Shown here: one piece after another, positions 76 to 1,794 of the stretch
Layout of the letters: the number at the start of each line of letters is the position of its first letter
How positions within the stretch are numbered: the stretch's first letter is position 1
Source: Peptostreptococcaceae bacterium
Lineage (GTDB): Bacteria; Bacillota; Clostridia; Peptostreptococcales; Anaerovoracaceae
Assembly: GCA_016650115.1 (NCBI GenBank)
Contig: JAENWI010000001.1
Coordinates: forward strand, 1 to 30,773
Length of the DNA stretch: 30,773 bases
Direction of reading: 5' to 3'
Notes under the pieces: model-generated
What the model was told of the DNA's origin: nothing
Databases searched by the model: none
What the model saw: the letters and a program-made list of their open reading frames with translations, nothing else
Translations under genes and position numbers: made by a program

Positions 76-79
76 TTTA

Positions 80-113
80 GAAAAAAGACATATCTTATGG
101 TATGTCTTTTTTC
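80..113 (+). terminator. Intrinsic terminator of the rrn operon
   Basis: GAAAAAAGACATA (80-92) pairs perfectly with TATGTCTTTTTTC (101-113); U-tract on both strands. Confidence 0.9.
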
Positions 114-151
114 TATGTCTGAAAATATCAACTATTCAAAGGAGGAGATGA

Positions 152-166
152 CCGCCAAGTATCATC
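152..166 (-). repeat. Inverted 15-nt fragment of the 5S rRNA
   Basis: CCGCCAAGTATCATC is the exact reverse complement of 29-43 (GATGATACTTGGCGG). Confidence 0.85.
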
Positions 167-190
167 CTTTAAAATATATCAGCGGGCAGG

Positions 191-350
191 TGCGTATTTT
201 ACGCAGCTTTAGCTGCAGGGTAAAATACGACAGCACAGGGAACGAAGTGACCGGAGGAGCCGCAGGCGTTGCCTGTTTTACCCAGCTTTAGCTGGAGAGT
301 AAAACAGGACAGCAGGGAGCGAAGCGAGTCGGAGAGAAGCACGGAGTGCT
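191..350. repeat. Two tandem palindromic units (long stem-loop plus three cGNAg mini-hairpins), period about 79 nt
   Basis: CGTATTTTAC-GCAGC-TTTA-GCTGC-AGG-GTAAAATACG (193-229) vs CCTGTTTTAC-CCAGC-TTTA-GCTGG-AGA-GTAAAACAGG (272-308); all stem differences are compensatory. Confidence 0.85.
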
Positions 351-356
351 GAAAGT

Positions 357-387
357 TGCCTGGGAAAGTAGGACGTCGCCGGTTTTA
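357..387 (+). pseudogene. Duplicated 3' end of 5S rRNA (no 5' half)
   Basis: 31-nt exact copy of 49-79 (TGCCTGGGAAAGTAGGACGTCGCCGGTTTTA); GCGGGCAG at 182-189 matches 40-47. Confidence 0.75.
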
Positions 388-498
388 AGTGAAAGCAGTT
401 CTGAAAAGGACTGATTTTTACGTTTCAGAACGTGGCTTGAACTTATGCAACTGCGGGTAAACAATTAATGCGCAGTTGTAAACCTTATGAATAAAAGT

Positions 499-534
499 AG
501 ACATATCTTATGATATGTCTTTTTTCTATGTCTG
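499..534 (+). terminator. Second copy of the rrn terminator
   Basis: 35/36 identical to 86-121; the single change (G100 vs A513) turns a T-G pair into T-A. Confidence 0.8.
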
Positions 535-737
535 GTGAAATCAACTTATCCGAGGCAGAAGGTTTACAAATTTTCTGGAGAGAGTTAACCTTTATTTTAT
601 TAAATTATATCTCCCAAGTTAACCCGGAAGTGGGTTTGCCTCAGTTTTTCACTCTAGAAGTGGGTGCCATCAGTTTGCCAAACTGTAAATGTTTAAATTT
701 GACATTAAACACTATACTGTAAAGGTAAACTTTAATT

Positions 738-766
738 TTGCATTAATAAGTCAGTTGATGCATAAT
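738..766 (+). promoter_or_regulatory. Putative sigma-A promoter of the ROK kinase gene
   Basis: TTGCAT (738-743), 17 nt, CATAAT (761-766); RBS GGAGGT before ATG 820. Confidence 0.55.
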
Positions 767-819
767 ATAAGTGTAATATTGTGGATATTGAAAAATAAAA
801 GGTGAATTGGAGGTGAATA

Positions 820-1794
820 ATGTTTTTAGGAGCAATCGATATTGGTGGAACTAAAACAATAGTGGCAGTATGTGATGAAAAGGGTAACATAATAGAAATG
901 GAAAATTTTCCAACAGAAAATGGAGATTGGATGGTACATTTCAGAATTACCGCAGAAAAATTCATTCAGTGTGTAAATAAACTTCAAATTGATATAAATG
1001 AGGATTTATCAGGTATAGGAATTAATGTTCCAGGTATGGTTGATGAAAATGGCATTTTGATTTATGCGCCTCATCAAAACTGGAGAGATGTGCATGTGAA
1101 AGATTATTTTTCGAATTATTTCAAGACGGATAAAATAATCGTTGAAAATGATGTTAATTCGTGTGCTGTTGGAGAAATGATTTTTGGTGGCGGAGGTCAC
1201 GATTTCCTTTGGATTACAATCAGTACTGGAAATGGAGGGGCAATTATTGCAAACGGCCAATTAATTAGGGGGAATCAAAGCTGCGCCGGAGAATTTGGCC
1301 ATTTAAAAGTTGAATTTGAATCCCCAAGAAAATGTTCGTGTGGTCAATATGGTTGTCTAGAGGCTCATAGCTCCGGCACAGCTATTAAAGAACAGTTTGA
1401 AGAAGCTTTATTATATGATTTGAATTTAAAAGAAACTGTGCTTAACAAGCAAATAAAAGACGAGAAATTCAAAATTGACGCCTATGGCTTAAGCCTCTTG
1501 GCTCGAGAAGGGAATTCTGTAGCAATTGATATATTTACAAGGACGGGGATGTATCTTGGCAGGGCTATTTCGTATGGAGTTAATATTTCGAATCCACAGA
1601 CTGTTTATTTGGGGGGAGGAATTGCTGAATCACTAGATCTAATTTTACCGGCTATTATTATGGAATTGGATAAATGTGCAATAGAAGAATGTGGAAAAGT
1701 TACAATTTGCAAGACCAAATTGGGGTATAACGCTGCAATAATTGGCGCATCGGCATTGGTATATCTTCAGAAAGATATACTTGCTAATTTGTAA
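820..1794 (+). CDS. ROK-family sugar kinase (no HTH)
   Basis: N-terminal DIGGTK phosphate-1 motif, ENDVN, ISTGNGG, GEFGH, CSCGQYGCLE zinc motif, GGGIA; no N-terminal DNA-binding domain. Confidence 0.9.
   Translation: MFLGAIDIGGTKTIVAVCDEKGNIIEMENFPTENGDWMVHFRITAEKFIQCVNKLQIDINEDLSGIGINVPGMVDENGILIYAPHQNWRDVHVKDYFSNYFKTDKIIVENDVNSCAVGEMIFGGGGHDFLWITISTGNGGAIIANGQLIRGNQSCAGEFGHLKVEFESPRKCSCGQYGCLEAHSSGTAIKEQFEEALLYDLNLKETVLNKQIKDEKFKIDAYGLSLLAREGNSVAIDIFTRTGMYLGRAISYGVNISNPQTVYLGGGIAESLDLILPAIIMELDKCAIEECGKVTICKTKLGYNAAIIGASALVYLQKDILANL

Follow-up and report, generated by a model that had tools for sequence, protein, structure and literature searches.

A family of small structured repeats in Anaerovoracaceae-type genomes, with a tandem pair inside a truncated 5S rRNA duplicate

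Introduction

What are the two palindromic units that stand head to tail behind the 5S rRNA gene at the start of contig JAENWI010000001.1, and is their structure kept at the level of DNA or of RNA? The window, by which we mean the whole stretch of DNA analysed here (30,773 nt, assembly GCA_016650115.1), belongs to a Peptostreptococcaceae bacterium whose genome, G000, is a MAG of 545 contigs and 80% completeness. An earlier note, made from the letters alone, had taken the units for a REP/MITE-like element handled as single-stranded DNA (ssDNA). Relatives were searched by BLAST, by an exact-motif scan and with a covariance model, R1; the family names of genomes follow their record titles.

Results

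The locus behind the 5S rRNA gene

The contig begins within a 5S rRNA gene, and both units lie in a truncated 5S-like duplicate downstream of it. With a unit taken to run from GCC or GCG to GTT, the features of the region are as follows.

1-76, + strand: genuine 5S rRNA gene, 3' two thirds, 5' part cut (Rfam RF00001, 43.3 bits, model positions 42-120)
78-115, + strand: intrinsic terminator hairpin of the 5S gene, a perfect inverted repeat of 15 bp with a T run after it
146-166, + strand: inverted copy of the 5' strand of 5S helix IV/V, 15 nt of it exactly complementary to 29-43
182-191, + strand: 5S-like helix IV 5' strand (GCGGGCAGGT), left flank of the insertion site (repeat, 182-193 versus 40-51)
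192-270, + strand: unit 1, 79 nt (R1 match at 185-273, 69.8 bits)
271-357, + strand: unit 2, 87 nt (R1 match at 264-348, 87.4 bits)
358-387, + strand: 5S-like 3' end (GCCTGGGAAAGTAGGACGTCGCCGG and a T run), right flank of the insertion site (34-nt repeat, 354-387 versus 46-79, 97%)
494-555, + strand: second copy of the 5S terminator and spacer, which closes the duplicated module (direct repeat, with a terminator-like site at 499-520)

The true gene reads GGGCAGCT|GCCTGGG at 41-55. The duplicate reads GGGCAGGT, unit 1, unit 2 and then GCCTGGG, and both units occupy the would-be loop D of its 5S-like helix IV. A full 5S fold (helices I-V) is absent from the duplicate: its likeness to 5S is confined to 182-193 and 354-387, Rfam finds 5S at 1-76 only, and an Rfam scan of window positions 77-900 gave no match besides chance miRNA-like ones. 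The terminator and spacer of the true gene, 81-142, are repeated at 494-555 with 82% identity. Judged by sequence comparison, the start of the truncated module is marked by the inverted piece at 146-166, the reverse complement of 5S 29-49 (15 nt exact). The same piece is present in the congener G001, in the MAG locus L053 and in G061; in the G013 version one base differs in step with the 5S of that genome (A in G000, G in G013).

Truncated "5S 3'-end" modules, one to three in number, stand behind the true 5S in several genera (window 143-387; G013, L032 160-372; L053 1-300; G061, L135 2300-2700), each opening with an inverted helix IV 5' strand that tracks the 5S sequence of its own genome. 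The inverted piece looks like the product of a snap-back or inverted duplication, or else like a selected anti-5S segment. We also note that window positions 388-493 hold a piece of ~100 nt with two hairpins, one at 396-413 followed by a T run and one, CAACTGCG...CGCAGTTG, at 459-489. This piece is tandemly duplicated in G001 (L004 228-404), recurs in part on another contig of the same genome (G000:C195:3129-3158), and may be another small repeat.

Could module 143-387 itself be a functional noncoding RNA derived from 5S, made up of the 5S 3' domain, an expanded loop D and an anti-5S segment, with the units as expansion segments? The whole arrangement (inverted 5S piece, units, 5S 3' end, terminator) is kept behind 5S in at least four genera and occurs threefold in G013, and the way in which the inverted piece follows each genome's own 5S also speaks for such an RNA. 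Against it, the same unit stands in dozens of unrelated contexts without 5S sequence, the 5' half of 5S is missing, the region reaches no Rfam model, one unit of each pair has degenerate junction motifs, and gene conversion can account for the match between the 3' end and the 5S next to it. We consider a 5S-derived RNA improbable.

Anatomy of the units and covariation

A repeat search recovered the two units at the spacing of about 79 nt described in the earlier note. The parts of each follow one order: a long hairpin with a 3-nt bulge (P1), GACAGCA-GGGAGC, a GCGNAGC mini-hairpin (P2), GAGTCGGAG, a variable hairpin (P3) and GTT. In unit 1, P1 spans 193-229 with bulge AGG, P2 is ACGAAGT (242-248), P3 is GCCGCAGGC (259-267) and GTT forms the end; its junction motifs are degenerate (GACAGCACAGGGAAC, GACCGGAG). 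In unit 2, P1 spans 272-308 with bulge AGA and is accompanied by the consensus GACAGCAGGGAGC, P2 is GCGAAGC (319-325), GAGTCGGAG occupies 326-334, P3 is AGCACGGAGTGCT (338-350) and the GTT end lies at 355-357. The six stem substitutions between the two long hairpins form three compensatory pairs, as had been reported (G/C at 194 versus 273, A/G at 196 versus 275 and G/C at 203 versus 282, each with its partner), and the bulge holds one further change. Folding is better than in shuffled sequence for both units, with z -5.3 and -4.1 for DNA and z -3.0 and -4.1 for RNA, and these energies do not discriminate between a DNA and an RNA reading.

Across the family, a unit measures 75-90 nt from GCC to CGTT and has the consensus, 5' to 3', GCC, P1, GACAGCA(N)GGGAGC, P2, GAGTCGGAG, P3, (C)GTT. 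P1 is an A/T-rich hairpin of 15-16 bp capped by a tetraloop; the lower of its two stems has 9-10 bp and the upper 5-6 bp, and between them 3 nt bulge out of the 3' strand. The single-stranded motifs GACAGCA(N)GGGAGC and GAGTCGGAG are near-invariant; that they persist unpaired from family to family could be expected of a functional RNA too. P2 is GCG-N-AGC with all four N, GCG-NN-AGC with three NN variants, or a longer stem, and P3 varies in length, its loops being mostly GAA, GGA or GCA closed by C-G. Of 114 hairpins each, 81 P2 and 50 P3 have a GNA triloop.

The pairing is strongly maintained. Among 114 distinct copies, 93.0% of pair cells are paired, as against 72.7% in shuffles and 36-48% with slid partners; double changes occur in 17 of 20 pairs (414 cells), and none of 500 shuffles reaches such values. 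This covariation bears out the earlier proposal that the structure is under selection. The further claim, that differences between corresponding mini-hairpins preserve pairing, holds for 242-248 versus 319-325 and for 259-267 versus 338-350; the middle one (CCGGAGG, 251-257, versus TCGGAGA, 329-335) is neither supported nor rejected by covariation because it falls in the family-invariant GAGTCGGAG. Wobble pairs make up ~2% of cells, and since G-T/T-G exceeds A-C/C-A by 44 to 11, one particular strand is the one that folds.

Is the pair then a neutral local tandem duplication with chance palindromes, belonging to no family and subject to no selection? The assembly holds no copy outside this locus, as such a duplication would have it, but hundreds of related copies elsewhere, with covariation, refute this reading, and the two unit types are conserved separately in other genera. 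It has next to no chance of being right. The covariance model built from relatives matches unit 2 with E 4e-20 and unit 1 with E 2e-15. Unit 2 is 95% identical to the lone unit of G001, which has the same locus with one unit, and the same architecture is found in other genera. Units of the GCGTATTTTAC type, orthologous to unit 1, and of the GCCTGTTTTAC type both stand behind 5S in L053 and in G061, where the upper-stem differences between the two types are compensatory; the pair in the window is thus no recent duplication. In one permafrost study, four DNA runs contain 56-93% of the words sampled from window positions 100-700. With these reads, and with the locus shared by G001, an artefact is unlikely. 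At most 5% of the window's sampled words occur in RNA runs, and these are probably the 5S-like part.

Two other readings of the local sequence were rejected. The open reading frame at 97-291 and the open frames that run through arrays are by-products of the repeat, unit lengths being 75-96 nt and not all multiples of three. The scaffold of the Cas9 guide RNA contains GUUUUA...UAAAAC with a bulge, as well as GAGUCGG; the stem of the family consensus differs from it, and the element is multi-copy and tandem. In the TTTTAC/GTAAAA form of P1 (window 198-226), a promoter-like TTTACG-17-TAAAAT can be read on either strand; it is present only in this subfamily and missing from the commoner TTTTTGCC form.

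Distribution of the family

An exact-motif scan of 185,579 species genomes returned 66 loci, in Anaerovoracaceae/Peptostreptococcales: in Clostridium aminobutyricum, Sinanaerobacter chloroacetimidivorans and Bacilliculturomica massiliensis, and also in MAGs labelled Aminipila, Anaerovorax and Anaerovoracaceae. With 150 candidates scored per genome, so that the counts are lower bounds, R1 gave at least 47 matches in G061, at least 37 in G063, at least 87 in G064 and at least 49 in G065, four large Anaerovoracaceae-type genomes. Many copies ride within other multi-copy elements, and copy number therefore overstates the number of independent insertions. Head-to-tail arrays reach 18, 9 and 7 units with a period of 75 nt. 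These dispersed and tandem copies in relatives agree with the REP/MITE-like character first suggested for the pair.

The spread is patchy. Units were found in five of the 36 genomes of the window's own family, in five of the six sampled from the neighbouring family f8, and almost nowhere in the order's ten remaining families; viral contigs and plasmids yielded none. Truncated forms comprise lone P1 hairpins and copies that lack the 5' half of P1. No Rfam 15 family reached its gathering threshold for the units and a literature search returned no paper on such a repeat in this clade; the family is apparently undescribed so far.

Filled and empty sites

Further copies and empty sites had been named as a check on the original proposal, and both exist: relatives are multi-copy, and filled sites can be set against empty ones in three host contexts. 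The unit, GCC...CGTT, is an insertion. It is usually preceded by T and followed by G, and in several hosts it sits at the 3' edge of a hairpin loop. The first context is 5S loop D, where the empty form of the true gene and the filled form of the duplicate read as given above. The second is the last hairpin of the Clostridiales-2 sRNA, which is empty in L102 (GGGAACCATGGGTTCCC) and filled in L045 and others, where it reads GGGAACCAT, the unit AGCC...CCGTT, and GGGTTCCC. The third is a 32-copy promoter-like element of G063, whose hairpin ACGGC-GTT-GCCGT is mostly empty and otherwise carries one or two units after GTT. Over 80 non-identical sites, T stands at position -1 in 57, GTT at the left in 23, and G at +1 in 68. 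The filled and empty pairs show no clear target duplication. This evidence comes from filled and empty copies compared within these three hosts.

Some ten further sites have strongly complementary flanks, and some of these are terminator-like. Flank-to-flank pairing over all 66 distinct sites is not significant (p 0.19), and a general rule of mutually pairing flanks was accordingly dropped, as it holds for a subset only.

The G063 element, found in C. aminobutyricum in at least 32 copies (for example L147 1430-1560 and L142 1430-1640), is ~90 nt long and consists of TATGATATAATGAACGC, the hairpin ACGGC-GTT-GCCGT, AAGGAAGCGTTCATTGAATCATACGGCGAC and, further on, GCTTGTATGATATAAT. Its ends resemble extended -10 sites and a 9-bp helix lies inside it; copies are sometimes tandem and often stand just 5' of genes, and there is no Rfam match. 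Separately, a 42-nt unit whose ends are inverted (AAAGTATCGAAAA...TTTTCGATAC) occurs five times in L048 2584-2928, 5' of a divergent regulator-like gene, and these repeats look like an operator array.

Replication strand and transcription

At which level does the structure act? The closed chromosome of G061 allows unit orientation to be compared with replication. With dnaA at 2.694 Mb, the replichores indicated by the 5S genes and by GC skew coincide, and GC skew predicts the replichore at 21 of 21 loci. The sense strand of the unit lies on the lagging-strand template at 17 of these 21 loci (one-sided binomial p ~0.004). At the three loci whose flanking genes run against replication, all three units follow replication, and agreement with co-directional flanking genes is found at only nine of 16 loci. 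With GC skew as a proxy, 47 of 62 loci in other genomes are likewise on the lagging-strand template. The replication-strand bias (~80%) comes from a single complete chromosome, and its size is close to the ordinary gene-strand bias that would be expected of such genomes.

The mini-hairpins belong to a kind that is very stable in DNA, as the earlier note had stated. They fit the d(GCGNAGC)/d(GCGNNAGC) rule, and the predicted pattern (a stem of G-C and C-G, a sheared G.A pair and a free N) is held by 81 of 114 P2 sequences. The DNA mini-hairpin d(GCGAAAGCT) is reported to melt at ~82 C and the RNA tetraloop analogue r(GCGAAAGC) at 39 C, and such stable mini-hairpins occur at ssDNA priming sites and N4 promoters (PMC13037366).

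The alternative is a structured RNA module that acts in transcripts: the unit would be a processed small RNA, or else a domain for cis-regulation or protein binding, it would have spread by duplication and by insertion into RNA loops, and its ssDNA features would be incidental. Many copies are oriented in sense at places that are transcribed, namely downstream of 5S rRNA, within the Clostridiales-2 sRNA ahead of its terminator, and in 5' leaders. Every host hairpin or terminator with a recognisable direction has the unit in sense. Units also lie upstream of dnaE, and the 18-unit array has a promoter-like site on one side and a small TSCPD-type gene on the other. The excess of G-U over A-C would be expected of an RNA as well. 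Contigs from RNA-seq libraries cover both L064 units at a depth like that of neighbouring genes, although such contigs show no strand and DNA carry-over is possible. Seven of the 16 G061 loci between co-directional genes are, however, antisense, and their scores are as good as those of copies in sense. Of the three long arrays, two run antisense to the genes beside them; one of these, the 7-unit array of G064, has infB and rbfA on either side, both on the other strand. GNA triloops together with ~2% wobble pairs are, to our knowledge, unusual for a natural RNA family, and for that reason they count against RNA. We regard the RNA module as possible, if doubtful. Of the original claim, then, the ssDNA level is favoured, though not firmly, by the dominance of GNA triloops, the G-T excess and an orientation that follows the replication strand in the complete chromosome.

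The search for an enzyme

The earlier note had expected a HUH enzyme of the IS200/IS605 or RAYT type. This part of the proposal did not hold up, and a Y1 HUH mover is not supported. The Pfam family Y1_Tnp (PF01797), which covers IS200/IS605 TnpA and RAYT, was not found in G061 (a complete chromosome with at least 47 matches), G065 (at least 49) or G062, nor in G013 or G009, which have eight to nine unit matches each. On this lack in the richest genomes, a Y1 HUH partner was rejected. Many genomes with Y1 genes hold no units, and the window's own genome has Y1 hits, none of them near a unit. No gene, transposases included, recurs beside units, and a search for an autonomous partner with the same ends yielded weak model matches that are lone P1 hairpins and not the ends of a gene-bearing element.

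Other candidates were rejected or showed no consistent link. An IS91-type Y2 partner is present only in G064, where it is placed after the terminators of a composite that merely contains a unit. The IS110 family is present in some unit-rich genomes and absent from G054, and no link to units was seen. Reverse transcriptase was not found in G013 or G009 and has no consistent link with units. As an observation in its own right, the IS91-family (Y2 HUH) element of G064 occurs in 14 copies, directly after the T runs of intrinsic terminators (L181 984-2622, L182 1352-2990 and L183); several of these terminators belong to a 162-nt composite of leader, unit, two hairpins and terminator, which is itself present in at least seven near-identical copies.

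Discussion

Comparison with known systems

By behaviour the family is of REP/MITE type, yet it matches neither REP/RAYT systems, nor IS200/IS605 derivatives, nor attC sites, nor any Rfam family in the defining features that were tested. Like REP/BIME sequences with RAYTs, the units are short, intergenic, palindromic repeats of conserved structure, dispersed and clustered in tens to hundreds of copies, and REPs too are thought to be handled as folded ssDNA. Many palindromic intergenic copies are indeed found in relatives, whereas the window's genome has one locus, and no co-occurring, repeat-flanked Y1 HUH (RAYT) gene was found. Unlike REPs, the units have no GTAG head, are arranged head to tail and not in inverted pairs, carry a large non-palindromic 3' module with invariant motifs, and are most abundant in genomes without a Y1 gene.

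Similarly, the PATEs derived from IS200/IS605, with their "peel and paste" movement, share hairpin-bearing ends, an orientation tied to the lagging-strand template and, possibly, insertion by a short specific sequence with no clear target duplication. In the units, by contrast, no linker separates the hairpin from the left end, the target amounts to little more than T|G, often in a hairpin loop, and no TnpA partner was found. Integron attC sites are likewise imperfect hairpins with extrahelical bases; they function as folded single strands, conserve structure more than sequence and have a GTT at the boundary. They differ in that no cassettes lie between units, the boundary GTTGCC misfits GTTRRRY, and the units carry a conserved extra module. 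Neither RYYYAAC...GTTRRRY cores nor cassette ORFs were found, and units abut or stand singly in intergenic DNA.

The Rickettsia palindromic elements (RPE) are small modular repeats able to sit in functional RNA and protein genes, and the pneumococcal BOX elements are small modular repeats with a tandemly repeated middle module; both are, as far as is known, unrelated to the units in sequence and host clade. The mini-hairpins d(GCGNAGC)/d(GCGNNAGC) of phage G4 and plasmid ssi priming sites and of N4 virion RNA polymerase promoters obey the same rule as P2, with N free (PMC13037366), but these are single sites in phage or plasmid ssDNA, and the units are a chromosomal repeat family.

Finally, there is a sub-threshold likeness to the RNA motif ldcC/SpF59 (RF02440). 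A bulged hairpin is followed by AAGGC.A.ACGGACAGC.GGG at 22.4 bits, below the cut-off of 37.2, and this likeness is a point for the RNA module. Genuine ldcC RNAs are built differently: an outer UGACC/GGUCA helix closes them, and they have no lower stem and no 3' module. We note that consensus-type units at L141 1361-1398 and 1436-1473 share the AAGGC.A.ACGGACAGC.GGG sequence with the orphan ldcC/SpF59. The ldcC-like sequence in the units could be chance or a shared recognition sequence.

A model for the units

We propose, first, that the unit is a small, non-autonomous repeat element of 75-90 nt. As its filled and empty sites show, it enters between T and G, and repeatedly so at the 3' edge of a hairpin loop that was already there; the loops entered include those of RNA genes, for example 5S and Clostridiales-2. 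Second, the CGTT end followed by G would recreate the preferred site, and the head-to-tail arrays can be explained because this end offers a new site at the 3' end of each unit. Third, propagation would take place as folded ssDNA on the lagging-strand template, through a trans-acting enzyme other than a Y1 HUH. At the locus described here, the host site is loop D of the truncated 5S 3'-end duplicate that closely follows the real 5S gene.

That the units form a REP/MITE-like element at the ssDNA level, renewing its target as it inserts into loops, is in our judgement about evenly balanced between right and wrong. A more specific version, in which an ssDNA element of ~80 nt targets structure and is moved by an enzyme outside the Y1 HUH class, or in which SSB-resistant GNA mini-hairpins form a chromosomal lagging-strand signal, we hold to be unlikely.

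The pair in the window is most likely an old, inherited resident of a 5S pseudo-copy, maintained in structure, and not the trace of a recent jump, because the assembly has no second locus and other genera have both of these unit types behind 5S. It is probably inactive.

Significance

For the window alone the result is a modest one, an old pair in a 5S pseudo-copy. In practical terms, the repeats break assemblies, mimic open reading frames (arrays of 75-nt units stay open in several frames) and can pass for novel RNAs. If our proposal is correct, the Anaerovoracaceae-type genomes searched would carry a previously undescribed repeat family with tens of copies per genome and arrays of up to 18 units, whose conserved features, the bulged hairpin and the cGNAg mini-hairpins, would be those of folded ssDNA. 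Insertions into hairpin loops, including those of RNA genes, would make the family a natural system in which to study the recognition of ssDNA structure in vivo, the spread of small elements without an obvious transposase, and the tolerance of RNAs for insertions.
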